Source: Phormidesmis sp. (GTDB taxonomy: Bacteria; Cyanobacteriota; Cyanobacteriia; Leptolyngbyales; Leptolyngbyaceae). Taken from it: a stretch of DNA of 64,000 nucleotides. Of the stretch, positions 1-9,557 are shown piece after piece (the first letter of the stretch is position 1; each line of letters begins with the position of its first letter). Position numbers and translations under genes: made by a program. The DNA lies in NCBI GenBank assembly GCA_965248535.1, contig CBDFJR010000005.1, positions 352,001 to 416,000 on the forward strand, written 5' to 3'. Under the pieces are notes generated by a model. The model did not search any database. It was not told where the DNA came from and saw nothing but the letters and a program-made list of their open reading frames with translations.

Positions 1-105
1 CCCAGCGACGAGGCTGAGTTCTGGCTACAAGCAAGTCAAATATCACTCGATGCAGTTTGGGATAATACTGAGGATGACGTATATGCCCAGCTACTCCAAG
101 CATGA
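1..105 (+). CDS. C-terminus of a putative antitoxin (partial, runs off the window start)
   Basis: Frame 1 reads PSDEAEFWLQASQISLDAVWDNTEDDVYAQLLQA*. The W-D-N-x-E-D-D-x-Y tail is typical of antitoxins preceding PemK/MazF, and it overlaps the toxin start. Confidence 0.7.
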   Translation, partial: PSDEAEFWLQASQISLDAVWDNTEDDVYAQLLQA

Positions 106-412
106 TGTTATATTGGTGCGCTATCCCTTCTCAGATTTATCGAGTTCAAAGGTAAGACCTGCTGTTGTTGTGAGTACGTCGCATCCATCTCAAGACATTC
201 TCATTACTCCTTTAACAAGCAAAACAAGTGCATTACTAGCAGGAGAGTTTGTGCTGTTTGAGTGGGCAGCAGCCAAATTGAACGTAACTACCGCAGTCAA
301 AAGAGGGGTATATACAGTACATGAAAGTTTGGTGATTAAAGTAATTGGTCAGTTGGTTAAGGTCGATGCTGATCAACTTAAGCAATCTTTGCAAAGCTGG
401 TTAGGTTTGTAA
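83..412 (+). CDS. PemK/MazF family toxin
   Basis: DVILVRYPFSDLSSSKVRPAVVVS and PLTS motifs; ATG at 83 lies inside the antitoxin tail. Confidence 0.9.
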   Translation: MPSYSKHDVILVRYPFSDLSSSKVRPAVVVSTSHPSQDILITPLTSKTSALLAGEFVLFEWAAAKLNVTTAVKRGVYTVHESLVIKVIGQLVKVDADQLKQSLQSWLGL

Positions 413-506
413 TTTAAGCCAATAGCCACAGCCCAAGGCAGTGTTGGTTTGCAAATGAGTATGATGGGAAGTCTCAAGAGCAAATGCTCAGGTATGGTAT
501 GCAACT

Positions 507-1081
507 ATGTCTAACAGATTGGAGTGTGCACAAAGACTATATGAAAGTGTTTTGGACTGGTACAAAAGTGCAGATTCAAAGGCTCAGGTAGTTTTAGCAA
601 TCGATGCTGGCTTCTTAGCATTTCTCACAAGTACAGTTTTTTCCGAGCCTGATAAGCTACGAGCAATTCTTGCTGAATTCAATTGGGTAACCTGGTCAAC
701 TCTAACTTTGATGCTTTTGTCGTTAATAGTATCGATTGGATCATCTATAGCTTGCATTTGGTCACGAATGTATTCATCCAATGAAGTCAAGCGAATTATT
801 AAAAAAGCCGAGTTGGAATTTAACGACACTAATACTTACCCGCCGGAAAAATAATGTGGTTTTTCCAATTTATTGAAGGTTTGAACCAGCAAAAATTTCA
901 AGCTACTCTTGAGTCCATTGAGGAGGAATTCGAGCTTAAAGTGATGGCAGAAGAAATTTATATTCTTTCAAAGAATGCTCGCGAGAAACACTTCATATTT
1001 AACATTGGCTTTGGGTTTGCAGCATTAAGTTTAATTCTTTTTGTCGTCGCGGCTGTGAGTTATTTATCCTCTGTCGCTTAA
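507..1081 (+). pseudogene. Pycsar-effector-like (DUF5706/PycTM) membrane protein, split by a 1-nt frameshift
   Basis: ADSKAQVVL + TM1 + TM2, then FF...IYILSKNAREKH + TM3. ORFs 507-854 and 854-1081 join if one A is added to the A5 run at 847-851. Confidence 0.7.
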
Positions 1082-1097
1082 GTTCTAAGTAAACGCA

Positions 1098-1184
1098 GCC
1101 CAACAACCCGGCTGGAGCGGACTGAAGGGAGATCTTGGTAGAAATGCGAAGGTTATTTGCAGCCGCTCAGCCGGAACGTTATGC
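1098..1184 (+). other. attC-like integron recombination site A
   Basis: R'' GCCCAAC ... R' GTTATGC. Inner arms CCGGCTG(G)AGCGG(A)CTG / CAGCCGCTCAGCCGG pair with two extrahelical bases; 87 bp. Confidence 0.85.
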
Positions 1185-1255
1185 CGCCGAAAATTCAGTG
1201 TGAGAAAGGCATTCAAGCTTTTTAGTTGAGTGTTGTAGTACCTGAAAAATTGAGG

Positions 1256-2194
1256 CTAATTACCCTGATGCTTGGATAAGTCCTCAACAACTTCGAGGAA
1301 ATTCCTTAGAACGGTTGACTGATTGTGAGTTCTCCTAACAGCAACAATTTCTAACACTGGAGAGAATTCCTGAATATCGCGGTAAATGACCCCAGTCCGT
1401 CGAAGGTTTTTCACATTAGCTGGAAGCACTGAAACACCCATCCCTCCAGCGACCAAACTCAACACAGTTGTTATCCAGGCTGCCTCTTGGACAATGACAG
1501 GCTTACAGTGAGCGCTGATGCAAAGTTGATCAATTTTATCGCGTAAGCCACGAAGTAAGGTGTGCGGTGGTAGAACAAACTCCTTGCCGTTAAGCTCTGC
1601 GAGTGAAACACTCGTTTTTTTAGCTAAGAAATGCTTCTCCGGGAGGACAAGCACGAGTGATTCATGAAGAACCAGAGTGTCAGAAAAAGACTCGCTATCC
1701 TCTTTAAGCAAGTCTTGTAAGTTGTGTTTATGGAAAAAGCCAATATCGATTTGATGATTGCGTAACTGTTCGATTTGATCATAAGAAGCCAGTTCATGCA
1801 GAACAAGATTAACGTTCGGAAACTGTTCGCGAAAATCTCGGATAATACTGGGTAATTTGCTATTTGCAATTGATGTATTGATTCCTACATCCAATCGACC
1901 GTATTTTCCTGCTTGGGTTTCCTGTGCGAGTTCAATGGCTTTTTTTGTCTGCTCGATGATTTGCTCGGCTCTTATCAAGAAAGCCTGTCCCGCATCGGTT
2001 AATCCTAAGGGACGAGTTGAGCGATCGAAGAGATCGAAGCCCAACCTTGTTTCTAGTCTCTGGATCTGTTTACTTAAAAAACCTTGGTCAAGATCGAGCG
2101 CAAGGGCTGCTTGAATGAATCCTTTATGATTTTTCAGGGCGATCGCATATTCCAGATGTCGCAACTCAAGTTCGTGCCATCTTGCCGATTTCAT
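1256..2194 (-). CDS. LysR family transcriptional regulator
   Basis: N-terminal HTH (ELRHLEY...LSKQIQRLE..LG..LFDR) plus substrate-binding domain (LVAGGMGVSVLP). Confidence 0.95.
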   Translation of the reverse strand: MKSARWHELELRHLEYAIALKNHKGFIQAALALDLDQGFLSKQIQRLETRLGFDLFDRSTRPLGLTDAGQAFLIRAEQIIEQTKKAIELAQETQAGKYGRLDVGINTSIANSKLPSIIRDFREQFPNVNLVLHELASYDQIEQLRNHQIDIGFFHKHNLQDLLKEDSESFSDTLVLHESLVLVLPEKHFLAKKTSVSLAELNGKEFVLPPHTLLRGLRDKIDQLCISAHCKPVIVQEAAWITTVLSLVAGGMGVSVLPANVKNLRRTGVIYRDIQEFSPVLEIVAVRRTHNQSTVLRNFLEVVEDLSKHQGN

Positions 2195-2324
2195 GCTTTT
2201 ACTATGACGCTTTAGTCATGTACTCATGTCAATGATAGCGATTTTATCATATTCATCTCCCCTATACTGTTTTCATCCGAGCAAGCCGCTCAGTCATGCT
2301 TATAACAACAACAAAGAGGAATGA

Positions 2325-2552
2325 ATGATTAAACGTGTTTTGCTGGTAGGCGGGACTCATGGCAACGAACTCATTGGAGTTTATCTCATCAAGAAATTTG
2401 AGCAAGACCCGGAGCTAGTTCGTAGAAACAGTTTTGAAACATTGACTCTGTTAGGTAATCCGAGAGCTATAGAAGCAACTGTCCGCTACATCGACAAAGA
2501 TTTAAATCGTTGTTTCGAGGTTCAGGAGTTCAACTATGAGCAACCTAAGTAG
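2325..2552 (+). CDS. Aspartoacylase, N-terminal half
   Basis: GGTHGNE, GNPRA and [11 protein letters not shown] motifs of the AstE/AspA family; stops at 75 aa. Confidence 0.85.
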
Positions 2553-2583
2553 TACTTATGAAACTCAACGAGCGACAGAAATT
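2521..2583 (+). repeat. 63 bp imperfect direct repeat, copy 1
   Basis: 55/63 identical to 3407-3469 by manual alignment, no gaps. Confidence 0.9.
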
Positions 2584-3394
2584 GACCATGACACCTATTA
2601 TTATCTATCCATTTACATCAGTCGGAACTGAGGCAACAGACTTATCCATTCATGCCATCAAATACATTTCAGATCCCTTTTTCCTAGCTTTATGCATCAT
2701 CTTTGTTGTTTGCACCTGTACAGGGATCGTGATTCACTCTTGTAAGCCAGCTTTCGTAGATCCAATTGCTAACGTCAAGATGTCAGGTTCTCCCGACCAA
2801 ATTGATTATGTAATAACTGGCTTCTTAATAAATGGATTTGGTTTGATCCTCGCAGCATTTGCTATGCCAAGATTCATACAATTAGAGCCAGTCAAGGCTT
2901 TTATATCGTTCTCTGGAAGTTATCTGTTAGGAATGTTTATTGGCGGATGGTTATATTTTTTATCTCGAAGGACTTTGCTAAGGCTTAGGCTTATTTCACC
3001 GTGGACTACGATTCGCAAACTCCACTGTCAGGAATGCAGGAGATCCCTTCATCTAATTGCATCCTCTAATTCATTTGAAAACCTGTTGTTTAACTATTTG
3101 AATTCAGCCGAGCAAGTAGCTGCAAGACTTGGCAGCACAGACTTTGAGATATGGCAGTGTTCTCACTGTCACCCATCCGCTAATCGGGATAGTGTACATC
3201 TGCGAGGCTATAGAAGATCCGGCTCTGTAATTTGCCCAACGTGTCACGAGGCTACGATGAGTGCAGGTCATGTATCCATCACTCGGAAAGGTCCTCAGGA
3301 AGAAGAAGAAGAGACGACTTACACCTGTCTTTGCTGTTCTAATAGGATGCGGAAGACTCGTACTATTACTTGGTCGGAGTTTGATCCAGTATAA
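2558..3394 (+). CDS. Membrane protein with C-terminal multi-CxxC zinc-finger region
   Basis: Three hydrophobic segments, then CQEC, WQCSHC, CPTC, CLCC. Resembles the Cys-rich tail of TPM-domain proteins but lacks the TPM domain. Confidence 0.7.
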   Translation: MKLNERQKLTMTPIIIYPFTSVGTEATDLSIHAIKYISDPFFLALCIIFVVCTCTGIVIHSCKPAFVDPIANVKMSGSPDQIDYVITGFLINGFGLILAAFAMPRFIQLEPVKAFISFSGSYLLGMFIGGWLYFLSRRTLLRLRLISPWTTIRKLHCQECRRSLHLIASSNSFENLLFNYLNSAEQVAARLGSTDFEIWQCSHCHPSANRDSVHLRGYRRSGSVICPTCHEATMSAGHVSITRKGPQEEEEETTYTCLCCSNRMRKTRTITWSEFDPV

Positions 3395-3406
3395 GTCATG
3401 AATAGT

Positions 3407-3469
3407 TTCAGGAGTTGAAGTATGAGAAACCTAAGTAGTATCTATGAAACTCAACGGGCTAGAGAAATT
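3407..3469 (+). repeat. 63 bp imperfect direct repeat, copy 2
   Basis: Matches 2521-2583; contains GGAG-7nt-ATG starting the C-terminal half. Confidence 0.9.
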
Positions 3470-4114
3470 AGCCGTGAGTTTGGATCAGAAGGACGAATGC
3501 CTGTAGATATGATCATCGATCAGCACAGTACCACCTCTAATGCAGGATTAATGCTGATTCTGGATCAGCTTGATGCTTTTACCTTGAATTTGGCAGTCTA
3601 CCTGACTGTTATACAGCCTGCTCTAAAGGTCTATAGTTCTACTAATTCGGGGCGAAATCGCGATTCCCTGCGATCGATTGCCAAATATCGGATTGGGATT
3701 GAGGTTGGTCCTATTGCTCATGGCATACTACAAGCAGAACTGTTGCAAAAAACCGAAGACTTGATTTATCCGATTTTAGATTATGTGGAGCAGTACAACA
3801 ACAACATGGTTGCCCTTGAGACTTCTCCGTTGCTCCTTTACCAGTATGTTGGTGTGATCGACTATCCCAGAAATGACCGGGGCGAGATTGCAGCAATGAT
3901 TCATCCTCAGCTTCAGTTCCAAGACTATGAAGCATTGAAGCCTGGTGCGCCAATGTTTTTGACTTTTGATGGGGAAACGATCTGCTATTCAGGAGATGCA
4001 ACTGTTTATCCCCTTTTCATTAATGAAGCCGCTTATTATGAAAAAGGCATTGCGATGTGTCTGACTCAAAAGCAGCGATTTCATGTCAACCTTAACCCAC
4101 TTGAGCATTTATGA
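3422..4114 (+). CDS. Aspartoacylase, C-terminal half
   Basis: IIDQHSTTSN, IEVGP, IDYPR, IHPQLQFQDY and FINEAAYYEKGIA motifs. Confidence 0.85.
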   Translation: MRNLSSIYETQRAREISREFGSEGRMPVDMIIDQHSTTSNAGLMLILDQLDAFTLNLAVYLTVIQPALKVYSSTNSGRNRDSLRSIAKYRIGIEVGPIAHGILQAELLQKTEDLIYPILDYVEQYNNNMVALETSPLLLYQYVGVIDYPRNDRGEIAAMIHPQLQFQDYEALKPGAPMFLTFDGETICYSGDATVYPLFINEAAYYEKGIAMCLTQKQRFHVNLNPLEHL

Positions 4115-4725
4115 TATTTCGACAGAATCTAACCACGATCGCGACAATCATCGGAATGTCAATCATGCCACTGCCAGCTTTCTCTACAGAGGTTCTAATT
4201 AGAGTAGACTGTCTGAGTCCAACTCAAGGCGCAGGAGCCTGCGAGGTGAGATGGCCTAATTTTCCCAACACTGATATCTGGGATGTGACATGGCTAGATG
4301 GCGTGCAAACTAGAATCAGAATGTCTGGGAAAAATGGGCCGCAACGCTGGAATCCACAAAATAAACAGTGGGCTGACGGCTCCAGCGTCGGTCTTTGCTG
4401 GGATCGCCAATGCATTCATCTTCCCCGAGACCAATGGAAATCTTTAGCATCTAAAACGACCAGAGCGCCAATCGAGTGTTCAAATCCTACTCTGCAAGAA
4501 AGTACATGTCAGATGGAATATGTGCGCGAGACAAAAGGTGTTCGAGTTTATTGGCCAGATGGTTCTATCGAACATTACCTCAGTTCGCCAAGTGACAATC
4601 GCTCTGCATTGCAGTGGCGCAAATGGAGCCACAATAAAAATAGATGGATTGAGGTGGCAAATTTTGGGATATGCCTTGACAAAATGTGCTTGCTTTTTGA
4701 TGCTGATTTCTTCAAGAAACGATGA
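4111..4725 (+). CDS. Secreted protein with two tandem Cys/Trp-rich domains
   Basis: Signal-peptide-like N-terminus and an internal duplication; ATGA overlap with the upstream stop. Confidence 0.7.
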   Translation: MIFRQNLTTIATIIGMSIMPLPAFSTEVLIRVDCLSPTQGAGACEVRWPNFPNTDIWDVTWLDGVQTRIRMSGKNGPQRWNPQNKQWADGSSVGLCWDRQCIHLPRDQWKSLASKTTRAPIECSNPTLQESTCQMEYVRETKGVRVYWPDGSIEHYLSSPSDNRSALQWRKWSHNKNRWIEVANFGICLDKMCLLFDADFFKKR

Positions 4726-4809
4726 TGGTTAAGAATGTGAGTTCCATACTGACTTCTGACTGCTAAATCTTGACTTTAAGGTTAGAGCTTGTATAGAGAT
4801 GCCCGAACT

Positions 4810-5049
4810 ATGAAATGCCCTAAGTGTGGTTACAACAATTTGCCGGAAGGAACACGGGATGGGAGATGTGATGAGTGTGGATATCTGATGTTGCCTGAGC
4901 GTGATAATTTTGATCCTAAATGTCCTAAATGTGGTTACAACAATTCGCTGGAAGCGGCACAAGATGACAAATGTGATAAGTGCAAATGTCTGATGTCGCA
5001 TGAGCGTGAGAACATTAGAATGATGGATATTGCATGCTTTTTAGATTGA
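4810..5049 (+). CDS. Small tandem zinc-ribbon protein
   Basis: KCPKCGYNN...CDxC repeated twice, also duplicated at DNA level. Confidence 0.6.
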   Translation: MKCPKCGYNNLPEGTRDGRCDECGYLMLPERDNFDPKCPKCGYNNSLEAAQDDKCDKCKCLMSHERENIRMMDIACFLD

Positions 5050-5522
5050 GTTTGAGCGTGAGAACATTATAAAGATGAACACTGTTGTAGAGTATAAACG
5101 CATCGACTGGAAAACGCATTGTCAACTTCATTGCCTTAGGGTCGTCTTTCAGCGTTTAACCTCAAGAAATCAAATTGAGATTTTTAATAACGGCATCTTC
5201 TGATACGGTCTCTAGACTATGGGTTATTTAAGATTTTGACAGGGTAATTCTTATACTTCTAGAAAATAGATTATGGGGAAGATTTTCTAAAGGGGAAGTT
5301 AAGCCATTTAGCTTAAACAGTAGAGTCTTTAGTTCTAGTCTATAAGATGTTTGAAGTGAGCTTTCTGGTGATGAAGCTGTTAATTCTGATAGCAACCATT
5401 ACACTGGATTTTGTATAGATCGCAAGTTCTGTCTAGACAATAAGGTACACCTCATGATGCCCATTTTCAAGAAGTATAAAATTTTCAAACATACAATGTA
5501 CAATGTGATGGGTAAAGCCGCT

Positions 5523-5609
5523 GCATAACAATTCAAATGCATCGGACAGTCGAAAGTTTCTGGTGCTGAGTTTGAGTCTGTCTGCCGCCGCTGACTAGGA
5601 ACGCTATGT
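5523..5609 (+). other. attC-like site B (degenerate)
   Basis: GCATAAC ... GCTATGT, 87 bp, similar to site A. The TAA in R'' ends an upstream truncated reading frame (...NVMGKAAA*). Confidence 0.7.
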
Positions 5610-5636
5610 ATTACAATCTGTGTTTCTGGAGCTCGT

Positions 5637-6161
5637 ATGGAAAAGCATAAGATCACAACACTACAAAATATCTTCAGTTCTAGACTCGATACCTTGAGCC
5701 ATCTCTTAAAGGTAGCCGAGAGTCATTTCGCAGAAGATTTGGAATCTGTATTGCAGCTTCGCATAGCATCCGATATGTTTCCTTTCGGTACACAGATTAT
5801 ATTCACTTGCAATCAGCCTCGCAACTTCGCATTGTGGTGCTTAGAAAAGCCAGAGAGCAACCTAAACCCCGATGTCGCATCTTTAGCTGAGGCTCGTAGT
5901 CATATTTCATCCACTAAGGAGCTTCTGGCAAATATCAATGCTATCGATACTAAGTTGTCAGAGATCAAACGAGTTGAGCTTGGGCAAGGGCTGTATGCAG
6001 AATTATTGGGACTCTCGTATGTAGATGATTTTCTAATGCCAAACTTTTATTTCCATCTGACGACGGCATACGACATCATGCGTATGGCAGGAGTGCCAGT
6101 AGGTAAGCGCGATTTTATGATGCATTTAGTGCCTTTCGTAAACCATCAAAGTGATGCATAA
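5637..6161 (+). CDS. DUF1993 family protein (cassette gene)
   Basis: RIASDMFPF and PNFYFHLTTAYDIMRMAGVPVGKRDF motifs. Confidence 0.9.
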   Translation: MEKHKITTLQNIFSSRLDTLSHLLKVAESHFAEDLESVLQLRIASDMFPFGTQIIFTCNQPRNFALWCLEKPESNLNPDVASLAEARSHISSTKELLANINAIDTKLSEIKRVELGQGLYAELLGLSYVDDFLMPNFYFHLTTAYDIMRMAGVPVGKRDFMMHLVPFVNHQSDA

Positions 6162-6241
6162 CAACTCCAACGCACCGGACTAAAGTCAGTGGTTAATGAG
6201 TTGTAAAAGATATCTGTGTCCGATGATTGGGAACATTATGC
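6156..6241 (+). other. attC-like site C (degenerate)
   Basis: GCATAAC contains the DUF1993 stop codon; GCACCGGAC arm; ends ATTATGC; 86 bp. Confidence 0.7.
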
Positions 6242-6292
6242 AGAAAAATCTAAGGGTTAAAATAGGGGTGTCGTTGAAACGAGGTTAAGCCC

Positions 6293-6416
6293 AGGACAGT
6301 TCGACAGCCTCGCTACAGCAAAGAAGAATTTGCTCGACGCGGCGATGAGATCTATAGAATCTCAGGTGCGGCCCCAAGTCGAGGAAGATAATCATGGGAA
6401 GATTGTGGCGATCGAC
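6293..6416 (+). pseudogene. Fragment of a small TA-associated protein
   Basis: TVRQPRYSKEEFARRGDEIY / ESQVRPQVEEDNHGKIVAID with a frameshift and no start codon. Confidence 0.6.
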
Positions 6417-6476
6417 CCATACCGAAACAGCAAGCCTTGAAGTGAGTTAAAATCGAGAGACTGCGATCGACTATCT

Positions 6477-6640
6477 ATGAGTGAAACCGTCTATTGAAAC
6501 CAGTAGCTTGGGCTACCTGACTGCTCGACCTAGCCGAGACACTGTTGTGGCTGCCAGTATTGACATAACGAGGGAGTGGTGGGACACACGTCGCGGCTAC
6601 TTCAAAAATCGCATCCCAACGACTAGAAGTCCTTCGTAAT
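6477..6640 (+). pseudogene. PIN-domain (VapC-like) toxin N-terminal fragment
   Basis: MSETVY / ETSSLGYLTARPSRDTVVAASIDITREWWDTRR, frameshifted and truncated. Confidence 0.65.
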
Positions 6641-6647
6641 CTTGTGC

Positions 6648-6684
6648 AAAAGATACTAGCTGCCGCTCAACTTAGCCGTTCGGC
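6648..6684 (+). other. attC-like site D, right half only
   Basis: GCTGCCGCTCAACTTAGCCGTTCGGC resembles the L'/R' arm of sites A and B; the left arm is missing. Confidence 0.6.
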
Positions 6685-6716
6685 AGCTTGTGCGCGGTGT
6701 TGTATACTGAGCTAAT

Positions 6717-7100
6717 ATGTCAAATCAATCTGCACCAGAAATCGAGCTGCTACGGGCAGCGTATTCGGCCTTCAACGCGCGCGATATTGATGCCGCTCTC
6801 GCCCTCATGACTCCCGACGTAGCTTGGCCGAGGGCGTTCAAAGGCGGTTTTGTCCGTGGGCCTGAGGAAGTCCGCGCCTACTGGACAGAGCAGTGGAGCG
6901 AGATCAATCCACACGTCGAGCCGATTGCCTTTTACTCGGAGGACGCTGGGCAAGTCTTGGTTGATGTGCATCAAGTTGTGCGCGATCTAGCCGGAGCCTT
7001 ACTTGCTGATGAGCACGTTGGCCACCGTTTCACCATTGAGCATGGCTTGATTCGAGCCATGGAAGTCTGTTCACTGCCATCGTCTGGTCTCGGTGCTTAA
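6717..7100 (+). CDS. SnoaL-like / NTF2 family protein (cassette gene)
   Basis: AYSAFNARDIDAALALMTPDVAW motif; the stop codon lies in GCTTAAC (R''-like, 7095-7101). Confidence 0.9.
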   Translation: MSNQSAPEIELLRAAYSAFNARDIDAALALMTPDVAWPRAFKGGFVRGPEEVRAYWTEQWSEINPHVEPIAFYSEDAGQVLVDVHQVVRDLAGALLADEHVGHRFTIEHGLIRAMEVCSLPSSGLGA

Positions 7101-7247
7101 CCCATGCTCTGTGGTCATAACTATCACAGCCCCTAGTGGATTATGCTTTTGTCTCAACTGATGTGCCTTTAGAATTCATCTTCTGTTTAAACAAGCATCG
7201 CCACTCTGCCATTAGACAAGCAGCCGCACAAACCTATGCACCCGGCT

Positions 7248-9557
7248 CTAGCGTTTCTTCCCAAATTTCGATTTTAAGTCGTCTAGCGTTGGCGATTTTG
7301 ATTCAGACGTGGGTTGCTTAGGTTGAGTCTCACGTTTAGGAATCGATTGAGTTTCCTGTTTGCGAATCGGTTGAGATTCCTGTTTACGAATCGGTTGACT
7401 CTCTGAGCGATCGCCCGACTTCATCGATAGACTAATTCGTTTCAAGCCCTGATTGACTTCTAATACTCGAACCATTACAACCTGTCCAACTTTGACGATC
7501 TGCTGCGGGTCACTGACAAAGCGATCGGCGAGTTGTGACACATGGACTAAACCATCTTGATGCACTCCCACATCGACAAATGCGCCGAAGTTGGCGACGT
7601 TGGTGACTACGCCTTCTAGCTCCATTCCGACTTTGAGATCAGACATTTCTTTTACGCCTTCTTTAAAGGTGGCGTATTTGAACTCAGCGCGAGGGTCACG
7701 TCCGGGCTTTTCTAACTCTGCAATGATGTCGCGCAAGGTGGGTTCTCCGATCGTGTCACTCACATAGTTTTTGAGATTGGCTTTGAGGTGATCGGCAATT
7801 TGGCTCGTCTGCGTCAAGGGCAGCGCGAAATCTTTGGCGATCGCTTTCACCACACCATAGCTTTCGGGGTGAACGGCGGTATTGTCGAGAGGATTGTCAC
7901 CATCGCGAATCCGCAAAAATCCGGCGGCTTGCTCAAAGGTTTTCGGCCCCAGTTTGGCAACTTTGAGTAGGGCTTTGCGATCGCGAAAGATTCCGTTCTG
8001 ATTGCGATAGGTCACAATGTTATTAGCAATGGCAGGCGAAATGCCAGAGACAAAGGTTAGTAACTCTTTAGAAGCCATGTTGAGATCGACTCCGACATAG
8101 TTGACGCAACTCTCAACCGTCTCGTCTAGCTTCTTTTTGAGCAGTTTTTGATCGACATCATGCTGATATTGCCCCACCCCGATCGACTTGGGATCGATTT
8201 TGACCAATTCCGCGAGGGGATCTTGCAATCGTCGGCCAATGCTAATCGCGCCTCTGACGGTGATATCTAGGTCAGGAAACTCGGCGATCGCCACATCACT
8301 CGCCGAATAAATCGAGGCTCCCGACTCATTCACCATGACTTTAATCGGCTTTCGGTCTAGCGTTGCCAAAACTTCGGCGACGAATTCATCGGTTTCTCGT
8401 CCGGCGGTGCCGTTGCCGATCGCAATCAATTCAATCTTGTGTTGATCAAGCAGTTGTTTTAGCGTGGCGATCGCCTGCACTCGCTGATGTGATCCTGTGT
8501 GCGGAAAAATCGCCTGGTATTGCAAAAACTTTCCCGTTTGGTCGAGAACGGCGACTTTGCATCCCGTCCGAAATCCCGGATCGAGGGCTAGGGTTGGCTT
8601 CATTCCGGCGGGCGCAGACAGCAGCAACTCCCGCATATTTGACTCAAAGGTTTTGATCGATTCGATATCGGCTTCAGTCTTTTTCTCAGCCCGAACTTCT
8701 GTGATCAAAGACGTTTTCATCAATCGATTAAACGCATCTTTAAGCATCGATCGATAGAACACTCGCACCGATTTTATCTGACTGCGAATCTCGGATTCTA
8801 GATAATTTAGAACCGCATCTTCGTCAAAATCTAGATCAAAGTTCAGAATATTTTCGGTCTCACCCCGATAGAGTGCCAGTAGGTTATGAGGCGCGATCGC
8901 GCTGACTTTTGCCTGAAATTTGCGATACATCTCATACTTTGTGGAACCTTCGGCGTGGTCACTTTTAATGCTCGATCGGAACACGCCCGTCTCTAACAAA
9001 AACTCGCGCAGATAAGCCCGGAGTTCTGCCTTTTCTGAGACTTCTTCTGCCAGAATGTCGGCGGCCCCCTTGAGCGCTTCTTCAACCGTTTTAACGCCCT
9101 TCTCTTCAGACACAAACTTTGCGGCTTCGGCTTCTAACGATCGTGCTGCCCCATTGGGTTGATTGAGAGACTTGATGAACTGTGCTAACTCTCCTAAGCC
9201 TTTTTCTTTGGCGATCGTGGCCCGCGTCCGGCGTTTGGGTCTAAACGGCAGATAGAGATCTTCTAGCTCATTTTTTTGCAAACAAGATTCAATCTTCACC
9301 CTAAGCGGCTCAGTGAGCTTGTCTTGAGATGTGATCGAATCGAGAACCGTTTTTTTGCGCTCTTCTAACTCGGTTAAATAGGCGAAGCGATCGGACAAAT
9401 CGCGCAACTGCACCTCATCCATTTCGCCCGTGCGCTCTTTGCGATATCGCGCAATAAATGGCACAGTGGCTCCTTCTGCAAACAAATCCAGCGCACTTTT
9501 AACCTGAGCAGGATGCAGAGACAACTCTTCTGCCAGAAATTGGGAAATATTTAACAT
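7248..9557 (-). CDS. tex: Tex family RNA-binding transcriptional accessory protein
   Basis: ATVPFIARYRKERTG, DPGFRTGCK and IGVGQYQHDV motifs, C-terminal S1 domain. Confidence 0.97.
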   Translation of the reverse strand: MLNISQFLAEELSLHPAQVKSALDLFAEGATVPFIARYRKERTGEMDEVQLRDLSDRFAYLTELEERKKTVLDSITSQDKLTEPLRVKIESCLQKNELEDLYLPFRPKRRTRATIAKEKGLGELAQFIKSLNQPNGAARSLEAEAAKFVSEEKGVKTVEEALKGAADILAEEVSEKAELRAYLREFLLETGVFRSSIKSDHAEGSTKYEMYRKFQAKVSAIAPHNLLALYRGETENILNFDLDFDEDAVLNYLESEIRSQIKSVRVFYRSMLKDAFNRLMKTSLITEVRAEKKTEADIESIKTFESNMRELLLSAPAGMKPTLALDPGFRTGCKVAVLDQTGKFLQYQAIFPHTGSHQRVQAIATLKQLLDQHKIELIAIGNGTAGRETDEFVAEVLATLDRKPIKVMVNESGASIYSASDVAIAEFPDLDITVRGAISIGRRLQDPLAELVKIDPKSIGVGQYQHDVDQKLLKKKLDETVESCVNYVGVDLNMASKELLTFVSGISPAIANNIVTYRNQNGIFRDRKALLKVAKLGPKTFEQAAGFLRIRDGDNPLDNTAVHPESYGVVKAIAKDFALPLTQTSQIADHLKANLKNYVSDTIGEPTLRDIIAELEKPGRDPRAEFKYATFKEGVKEMSDLKVGMELEGVVTNVANFGAFVDVGVHQDGLVHVSQLADRFVSDPQQIVKVGQVVMVRVLEVNQGLKRISLSMKSGDRSESQPIRKQESQPIRKQETQSIPKRETQPKQPTSESKSPTLDDLKSKFGKKR
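7321..7403 (-). repeat. 24 bp coding tandem repeat in the Tex tail
   Basis: ESQPIRKQ ESQPIRKQ ETQSIPKR ETQP. Confidence 0.75.

Follow-up and report, generated by a model that had tools for sequence, protein, structure and literature searches.

The window analysed here is a 64,000-nt stretch of a Phormidesmis sp. assembly (GCA_965248535.1, contig CBDFJR010000005.1, forward-strand positions 352,001 to 416,000). It carries an aspartoacylase gene of the AstE/AspA family that is present as two open reading frames (ORFs), designated the N-piece and the C-piece, with a membrane-protein gene, designated Z, between them. This arrangement had been pointed out in an earlier note made from the sequence alone, and the observation was confirmed in every detail that could be checked: the three ORFs were found on the + strand at the coordinates claimed (Table 1), and the motifs HGNE, DLNR, DQH, IEVGP and NEAAYYEK were all present in the two pieces. 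Along the + strand, the N-piece and Z are separated by 5 nt and Z and the C-piece by 27 nt, and the C-piece and the 204-aa ORF that follows it overlap (−4 nt). The N-piece ATG is preceded by GAGGA at a distance of 5 nt, and the C-piece has a putative start of its own, consisting of a Shine–Dalgarno-like GGAG, a 7-nt spacer and an ATG. The tail of the N-piece is frameshifted and reads YEQPK before the stop.

Table 1. Features of the split aspartoacylase locus; positions are those of the window.
Feature	Position	Strand	Remarks
LysR-family regulator	1256–2194	−	Intact, 312 aa; divergent from the aspartoacylase genes; Pfam HTH_1 and LysR_substrate
Aspartoacylase N-piece	2325–2552	+	75 aa; HGNE, DLNR; PF24827 positions 2–67
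Direct repeat, copy 1	2518–2591		End of the N-piece, GGAG-7 nt-ATG (ATG 2536) and relic of the C-piece start
Relic ORF, 31 codons	2536–2631	+	Duplicated C-piece start, then unrelated sequence and a stop; ~19 residues align with the true C-piece start
Middle gene Z	2558–3394	+	278 aa; N-terminal hydrophobic helices; C-terminal module of four CxxC motifs
Direct repeat, copy 2	3404–3477		Supplies the GGAG (3411–3414), 7-nt spacer and putative start ATG (3422) of the C-piece
Aspartoacylase C-piece	3422–4114	+	230 aa; YETQRA, DQH, IEVGP, NEAAYYEK; PF24827 positions 76–191 and PF04952
Downstream 204-aa ORF	4111–4725	+	Cys-rich; hydrophobic N-terminus; ATG overlaps the C-piece stop (ATGA)

Both pieces were assigned to the family by profile searches. 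The N-piece matched PF24827 (192 positions) with an E value of 2.9e-20; the C-piece matched a later part of the same model (E 3.1e-10), positions 2–76 of PF04952 (E 4.6e-26) and positions 76–292 of 293 of the NCBIfam aspartoacylase equivalog NF002601 (252 bits, cut-off 180). The AstE/AspA domain order, with PF24827 followed by the barrel-sandwich hybrid domain PF04952, is complete, but it is spread over two ORFs, and the single polypeptide of ~290–330 aa is replaced by chains of 75 and 230 aa, encoded in different frames 886 nt apart. By using family alignments of 60 rows each, the N-piece was found to keep 8 of 8 invariant columns (alignment A3) and the C-piece 16 of 16 (alignment A4); H12 and E15 are nearly invariant, and R62 is invariant, as are H35 and E94 of the C-piece. 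The H-x-x-E pair, the later His and the Glu of IEVGP are presumably metal-binding or catalytic residues, by analogy with the human enzyme. A structure prediction of the N-piece together with the C-piece gave a complex score of 0.92 (best control 0.15), a mark that was reached in the calibration by 116 of 157 solved complexes and by 2 of 215 mismatched pairs; the runs agreed in at least 93 % of the contacts, with a predicted local distance difference test score (pLDDT) of at least 86 for the partner. As is expected for the halves of one fold, this model shows only a likeness to the solved single-chain fold and is not proof of binding.

The junction between the pieces is duplicated. The two copies found by the repeat search are 74 nt long, 84 % identical and spaced by 886 nt; they differ at 12 of the 74 positions, their longest identical run is 14 nt, and they are the sole long repeat within 1800–4700. 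For the shorter span that had originally been described (2521–2583 against 3407–3469), the count of 55 identical positions out of 63 was reproduced on recalculation. The GGAG-7 nt-ATG arrangement is present in each copy (GGAG of copy 1 at 2525–2528), and subtraction of 886 from the position of the C-piece ATG leads to the ATG of copy 1, so that both share the same offset, +1 relative to the N-piece frame that begins at 2325. In copy 1 this ATG precedes the N-piece stop (2550–2552) by 14 nt, and the duplicated start of the C-piece persists only as the 31-codon relic ORF.

The frame break is situated in a variable loop between the DLNR and YE.QRA motifs. In an intact relative (G327, locus L029) the loop reads FQALDYEKNNSFYE. 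In repeat copy 2, the N frame reads FQELKYEKPK followed by a stop and the C frame reads NLSSIYE; removal of one base at 2541/3427 would make the loop equal in length to that of L029. Each copy has the extra base, at 2541/3427 or adjacent to it, a position that is itself among the 12 that differ. Because both copies carry it, the frameshift must have preceded the duplication, in agreement with the order of events proposed earlier, in which fission came first and a stop/restart junction was then duplicated around the middle gene; such a junction, with its Shine–Dalgarno-like GGAG, was indeed found in both copies. The unique inserted segment has the 5-nt word CATGA at either end (2586–2590 and 3397–3401), which may represent microhomology or chance.

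The layout was compared with read-derived contigs from four public runs of three studies (X1 to X4), which were aligned to positions 1200–5000. X1, which may be the source sample of the assembly, yielded contigs at 1783–3293 and 3405–5000 with 0 differences, and X2, another sample under the same organism label, yielded the same pieces and bridges with 4 and 3 differences. From X3, which belongs to another study and carries another organism label, a single contig of 1864 nt was obtained; it is collinear with 1980–3823, is ~96 % identical (75 substitutions, 9 gap letters) and spans the N-piece, the repeat, Z, the repeat and the start of the C-piece. X4, from the third study, contributed near-identical pieces at 2354–2595 and 3208–3358, and the part of the stretch that is uncovered in this run does not count as absence. 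The same split with the same insert, which the earlier note had wished to see searched for in relatives, is present in the X3 organism; with the matching pieces of X2 and X4, the arrangement is not unique to this assembly. A 75-aa N-piece (P0123, 93 % identical) and a C-piece (P0002, 95 % identical) were found in protein databases. Both pieces are thereby kept as ORFs in diverged relatives (the X3 contig, P0123, P0002 and the second split lineage described below), the X3 frames being only partly readable. A metagenome scan with the C-piece returned 80 loci, all of them at most 67 % identical, and may omit near relatives, P0002 not having been returned; the corresponding scan with the Z protein returned none. 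Among the sequencing runs listed as containing the locus, there were no RNA runs.

Two versions of the segment 3264–3434, which extends from the 3′ end of Z to repeat copy 2, were seen in each of X1 and X2. One is identical to the window, and the second departs from it by 18 substitutions and 13 gap letters, some of its changes being in common with X3. The depths of the two were 13.8 and 4.3 in X1 and 11.2 and 19.4 in X2. They could reflect a mixed population or a hypervariable junction.

Selection on the pieces was assessed from the visible substitutions, that is, the best-supported differences only; 140 further differences, summed over the four runs, are unlisted. In the C-piece, 9 of the visible X3 substitutions are synonymous and 4 are non-synonymous. 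Within 3901–4051, where 10 of the 12 X3 differences are visible (7 synonymous, 3 not), the ratio of non-synonymous to synonymous change (omega, Nei–Gojobori sites) was 0.11, or 0.19 if both hidden differences are taken as non-synonymous; under an equal-rate neutral model, that many synonymous changes in this segment have P ~0.001. Two of the X3 changes, C188S and S190P, are the same as in P0002, so that the contigs would come from the orthologous locus. Since X3 shares both the split and the insertion, the constraint on the C-piece would have acted after both, which argues for purifying selection on the C-piece in its present, separated state. The comparison of dN/dS for each half that had been called for was thereby approached, in a small and partial sample, for the C-piece (omega 0.11–0.19 in 3901–4051), and for the N-piece the only measure is the protein comparison with P0123, in which 5 of 75 residues differ.

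A second lineage with a split gene was found in two Logan contigs (2802 and 2502 nt), each of which encodes a 79-aa N-piece and a 223-aa C-piece (P0124 with P0005 and P0135 with P0008, respectively). Their C-pieces are 90 % identical to one another and 69–71 % identical to that of the window. In both pairs the tail of the N-piece and the head of the C-piece can be read by back-translation from one DNA in frames 0 and +1 over 7–8 consecutive residues, which means that the two ORFs would overlap directly, with a +1 split in the same loop and no insert. Counted in codons from the CF motif, the ATG lies where it does in the window, but the surrounding sequence differs. The tree separates the two split lineages and places the intact P0003 as sister to the window clade (Shimodaira–Hasegawa-like approximate likelihood ratio test value 87); a single clade of both split lineages was not rejected by the approximately unbiased (AU) test (p 0.197), with which either one or two origins of the split would be compatible. 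By the sequence comparison, the +1 split of this loop is retained in more than one organism, twice over. When the genome collection was scanned with P0005, the best match was 76 % identical and intact, and the insert-free split lineage had no genome there.

Of 90 aspartoacylase places listed from 401 surveyed genomes, all but those in the window (231 aa) and in G339 (217 aa) had an open frame of at least 288 aa. The G339 locus (L232; G339:C71:7500–11500, minus strand) was rejected as a like split, as it has an in-frame stop at the Tyr of YE and is an ordinary nonsense pseudogene; its HGNE region gave no match, the N-piece alignment starting at residue 21. Apart from L021 and L089, every other fetched locus with both motifs has them in one frame. 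In L021 (G016:C37) the N and C motifs lie in different frames and a TGA stop is present; in L089 the frame shifts between HGNE and DLNR. Both are broken aspartoacylases.

The middle gene Z gave no Pfam match, and no other ORF was found in the insert. A search of a word index of 5.8 billion proteins returned only Z itself; this result was misleading, as a family was found by an exhaustive HMMER scan, with 94 homologous representatives at E<=1e-3. The best relative, P0136, is 42 % identical over residues 19–270. Full-length forms have 226–310 aa and are recognised by hydrophobic N-terminal helices, a P..F..P motif and four CxxC motifs in conserved spacing, all of which are present in the window Z (hydrophobic segments 33–65 and 82–107; CxxC motifs at C157, C201, C226 and C257). 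The family alignment A2 has 14 invariant columns, which include all 8 Cys, and P64 and P69 of the P..F..P motif fall, like the 8 Cys, in invariant or nearly invariant columns. Z was modelled with a mean pLDDT of 83 and with residues 1–22 disordered. The disorder of these residues in the model, together with the position of the first 10 codons within repeat copy 1, points to the ATG at 2588 as the probable native start. A fold search of the model against the PDB gave nothing at E<=0.001, the only matches being generic zinc-ribbon fragments (ZPR1, NrdR). Z occurs once in the genome.

The surroundings of aspartoacylase genes in other cyanobacteria place Z in context. The divergent pairing of a LysR gene with an aspartoacylase gene was present in 69 of the 195 fetched loci (126 have enough upstream DNA to judge), examples being L004/L230, L227, L228 and L231. 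When 401 genomes of the class were sampled, the four best matches to Z fell in the window, G304, G375 and G119, and three of these four (window, G304 and G119) adjoin an aspartoacylase gene on the same strand. In G304 the order is LysR, aspartoacylase, a membrane protein of 190–212 aa (depending on the start) and Z; in G119 (L104) the aspartoacylase gene is followed by a gene for a 472-aa fusion protein, the C-terminal half of which is Z. The genome-collection scan also showed Z 252 nt after the aspartoacylase gene in a Nostoc genome (L066). In G304, G119 and L066 alike, the aspartoacylase gene is LysR-linked. Because the Z family and the divergent LysR recur beside aspartoacylase genes, the window would contain a rearranged version of a recurrent LysR–aspartoacylase–Z unit. 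The term captured gene, which had been used for Z, does not hold for a family that recurs directly downstream of LysR-linked aspartoacylase genes; its presence between the pieces is better described as a rearrangement inside the operon than as capture of a foreign gene. Another recurrent neighbour, encoded immediately downstream of the LysR-linked aspartoacylase gene in G304, G355, G327 and a metagenome contig (L231, L227, L228 and L116), is a membrane protein of ~184–212 aa. At other loci the downstream gene encodes instead a protein with the N-domain of the 472-aa fusion of G119.

The genome contains a second aspartoacylase gene, an intact paralog of 299 aa on another contig (L003, G000:C2:1128667–1132299; 51 % identical). 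No divergent LysR gene was found within the 1.2 kb of upstream DNA fetched for it. The paralog is preceded on the same strand by a 281-aa membrane ORF, which by eye resembles a prepilin peptidase. Seven genomes of the same genus carry only a gene about as distant as L003 (46–52 % identical to the C-piece).

The explanation that we favour, and hold to be moderately probable, is that of a two-cistron enzyme kept by selection, in which an operon partner was moved between the cistrons by way of a duplication of the stop/restart junction. In an accessory LysR-linked aspartoacylase operon, the enzyme gene would have been turned into two cistrons by insertion of one base into the surface loop between DLNR and YE.QRA. 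By the resulting +1 shift, the first 75 residues would come to a stop nearby, and the remaining 230 residues would start at a +1-frame ATG just upstream of this stop, 7 nt past GGAG; the frameshift, the stop and this putative restart ATG are shown by the reading frames themselves. Later, the 74-nt junction would have been duplicated, and Z, normally a downstream gene, would have come to lie between the junction copies, giving the order N-piece, Z, C-piece and 204-aa ORF on one strand. The cistrons may be co-transcribed as one transcript, the 75-aa and 230-aa chains being translated separately and assembling non-covalently into the normal zinc hydrolase fold, with Z as a co-expressed partner. 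Of the readings offered earlier, that of a two-chain enzyme with a membrane partner fits best with the layout in X3, the synonymous bias and the invariant residues, association and co-expression of the parts being predictions only. No single-step route from an aspartoacylase gene followed by Z to the present order could be conceived, each needing at least two steps. In one candidate route, junction and C-piece would be duplicated behind Z and the earlier C-piece copy lost; in another, Z would enter the junction by templated insertion. Downstream, no trace of a further copy of either Z or the C-piece was found. Taken together, the split locus is real and shared, and it probably encodes a functional form of a known enzyme in two cistrons, between which the gene of the usual membrane partner is placed. 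A further step, by which the split would itself be adaptive, appears doubtful to us: N-piece, Z and C-piece would then form a three-part unit translated in order, the hydrolase would assemble at, or be governed by, the membrane protein Z, and the loop would be a recurrent, selectable point of fission, struck on two separate occasions or inherited from an ancient shared ancestor.

Several observations weigh against a two-cistron enzyme maintained by selection. The selection test on the C-piece is a small and partial sample of 13 visible substitutions. Constraint on the N-piece is suggestive at most, the comparison with P0123 being one of proteins; in its favour, none of the 5 differing residues lies in HGNE or DLNR. 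Z seems less constrained (2 visible synonymous substitutions, 4 non-synonymous); three small deletions, one of 3 nt and two of 2 nt, lie close to the Z 3′ end in X3, and the second haplotype found in X1 and X2 also affects this end. In the set of ~195 fetched aspartoacylase loci, a split of this kind at this loop is confined to the window; fission of this gene is therefore rare and not obviously favoured. The intact paralog could cover the function, and neither the split-locus paralog nor Z was found in same-genus genomes (0 of 7).

A rival reading is that of a slowly decaying pseudogene: loss of the enzyme would have followed from the frameshift and the insertion, the open frames and conserved residues would persist only because little time has passed, and the work would fall to the intact paralog. 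The frameshift with its 886-nt interruption and the paralog on another contig are as this reading would have them; broken aspartoacylases occur elsewhere (L021, L089 and, with an in-frame stop in the same loop, L232), and the assembly differs from its close relatives at residues 59 (V instead of A) and 102 (I instead of T). However, the layout was already in place before the X3 organism diverged, and of the visible C-piece changes that followed, 9 are synonymous and 4 are not. The repeat copies are 16 % diverged, so the duplication is not fresh, yet frames of 230 and 278 codons are still open; all of the invariant residues are kept; and in the tree the window clade has a branch (0.18 + 0.036) similar in length to the branch of the intact sister P0003 (0.17). 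The other paralog, only 51 % identical and without a divergent LysR gene in 1.2 kb, need not be redundant. The alternative of a recent pseudogene raised in the earlier note is thus disfavoured by the synonymous excess in the C-piece and by the invariant columns, and we regard decay as unlikely.

Less probable again is the reading that only the C-piece is functional, alone or with Z and perhaps as a non-catalytic binding protein, the N-piece being a dead remnant. The evidence of purifying selection is limited to the C-piece, and the 5 changes in 75 residues of P0123 are not clearly below the neutral expectation. Against this, HGNE, a motif that hardly varies across the family, is missing from the C-piece, and the N-piece keeps all of its invariant positions as well as the GAGGA before its ATG. 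Its 5 changes avoid the conserved motifs, and in the second split lineage both N-pieces are intact as well. We consider this reading quite improbable.

A recombination switch, in which the 74-nt repeats would recombine, delete Z and toggle the locus, had been put forward on account of the direct repeats 886 nt apart. It was not borne out: identity between the copies is only 84 %, with no identical stretch longer than 14 nt; deletion of Z would leave the frameshift in place; the insert and its immediate surroundings contain no recombinase gene; and among the contigs of the four runs, from which rare variants can be lost, none skips the 886 nt. We regard such a switch as very improbable.

Programmed +1 ribosomal frameshifting that would rejoin the pieces into a full-length protein might be suspected from the +1 offset in the same loop in two lineages and from the Shine–Dalgarno-like GGAG that precedes the stop, a feature somewhat reminiscent of prfB. 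In the window, however, a shift at copy 1 would enter the 31-codon relic ORF, which ends inside the insert, so that a full-length product is impossible there, and no slippery motif was seen at the stop. We give this mechanism hardly any credence for the window; it is conceivable only for the insert-free Logan lineage. Lastly, repeats can cause mis-joins and X1 may be the assembly's own sample, but an assembly mis-join at the repeats, which the earlier note had thought the reads might reveal, or a frameshift due to sequencing error can practically be dismissed, as the contigs of X2 and X3 bridge the repeat copies in the same order and that of X3 spans 1980–3823.

The 204-aa ORF that overlaps the C-piece stop (Table 1) gave no Pfam or NCBIfam match and was found beside aspartoacylase genes in no other fetched locus; it is probably in the same transcription unit as the split aspartoacylase. 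No terminator-like site was detected on the + strand within 2150–5200, so none lies between the cistrons; the counts from the promoter and terminator scans were at the level of the shuffled controls. An Rfam scan of window positions 1–8000 gave no match. Just downstream of the unit, an 86-aa ORF (4789–5049) has a duplicated KCPKCGYNN...C..C pattern and would be a small double zinc-ribbon protein.

Single-domain enzymes that are cut inside the catalytic domain and are yet kept by selection are uncommon, and such cases reveal the places at which a fold can bear fission. In both lineages described above the cut falls between two active-site motifs, and in one of them the operon's own membrane partner gene lies between the pieces. 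If the pieces reassemble, they would mark a natural split site for the AstE/AspA fold and provide a worked example of how a frameshift and a fortuitous start in the +1 frame turn one gene into two reorderable cistrons; they would also give a first functional lead for the membrane zinc-ribbon family of Z and for the LysR-linked "aspartoacylase" operon. To our knowledge, the physiological substrate of this cyanobacterial operon has not been reported. No description of a split aspartoacylase came up in the literature searches.

Like a transposon insertion with target-site duplication, the locus has a unique segment between direct repeats; in contrast to such insertions, its repeat is 74 nt long and 16 % diverged, and the insert is almost exactly one ORF. 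The insert lacks a transposase or integrase gene and terminal inverted repeats and is present in one copy in the genome, and it was not classed as a mobile element. The CxxC module of Z (residues ~142–270) aligns with the C-terminal zinc-ribbon modules of Psb32-like cyanobacterial proteins of 388 aa (L023) and 578 aa (L022). The N-domain of the L023 protein, which we take to be TPM-like, matched the Psb32 model below threshold (75 bits, cut-off 160); Z is without such an N-domain and represents a shorter family with its own helices and the P..F..P motif. Compared with the AstE/AspA aspartoacylases (PF24827 and PF04952; NF002601, PRK02259), the two pieces jointly cover model positions 2–292 of 293, and a divergent LysR gene is the neighbour, as it is at many intact loci, but the enzyme is a single chain there and two polypeptides with another gene between them here. 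Natural fission of a gene into complementary fragments is known for mitochondrial cox2, where it was insertional according to the title of PMC5374615, and is reported for split-Doa10 (PMC3464245). In these cases, as reported, one ancestral gene likewise gave two co-retained, complementary ORFs; the present locus differs from them in that the cut is a +1 frameshift with overlapping stop and start, the junction is duplicated, and the insert is a whole neighbouring gene of the operon.

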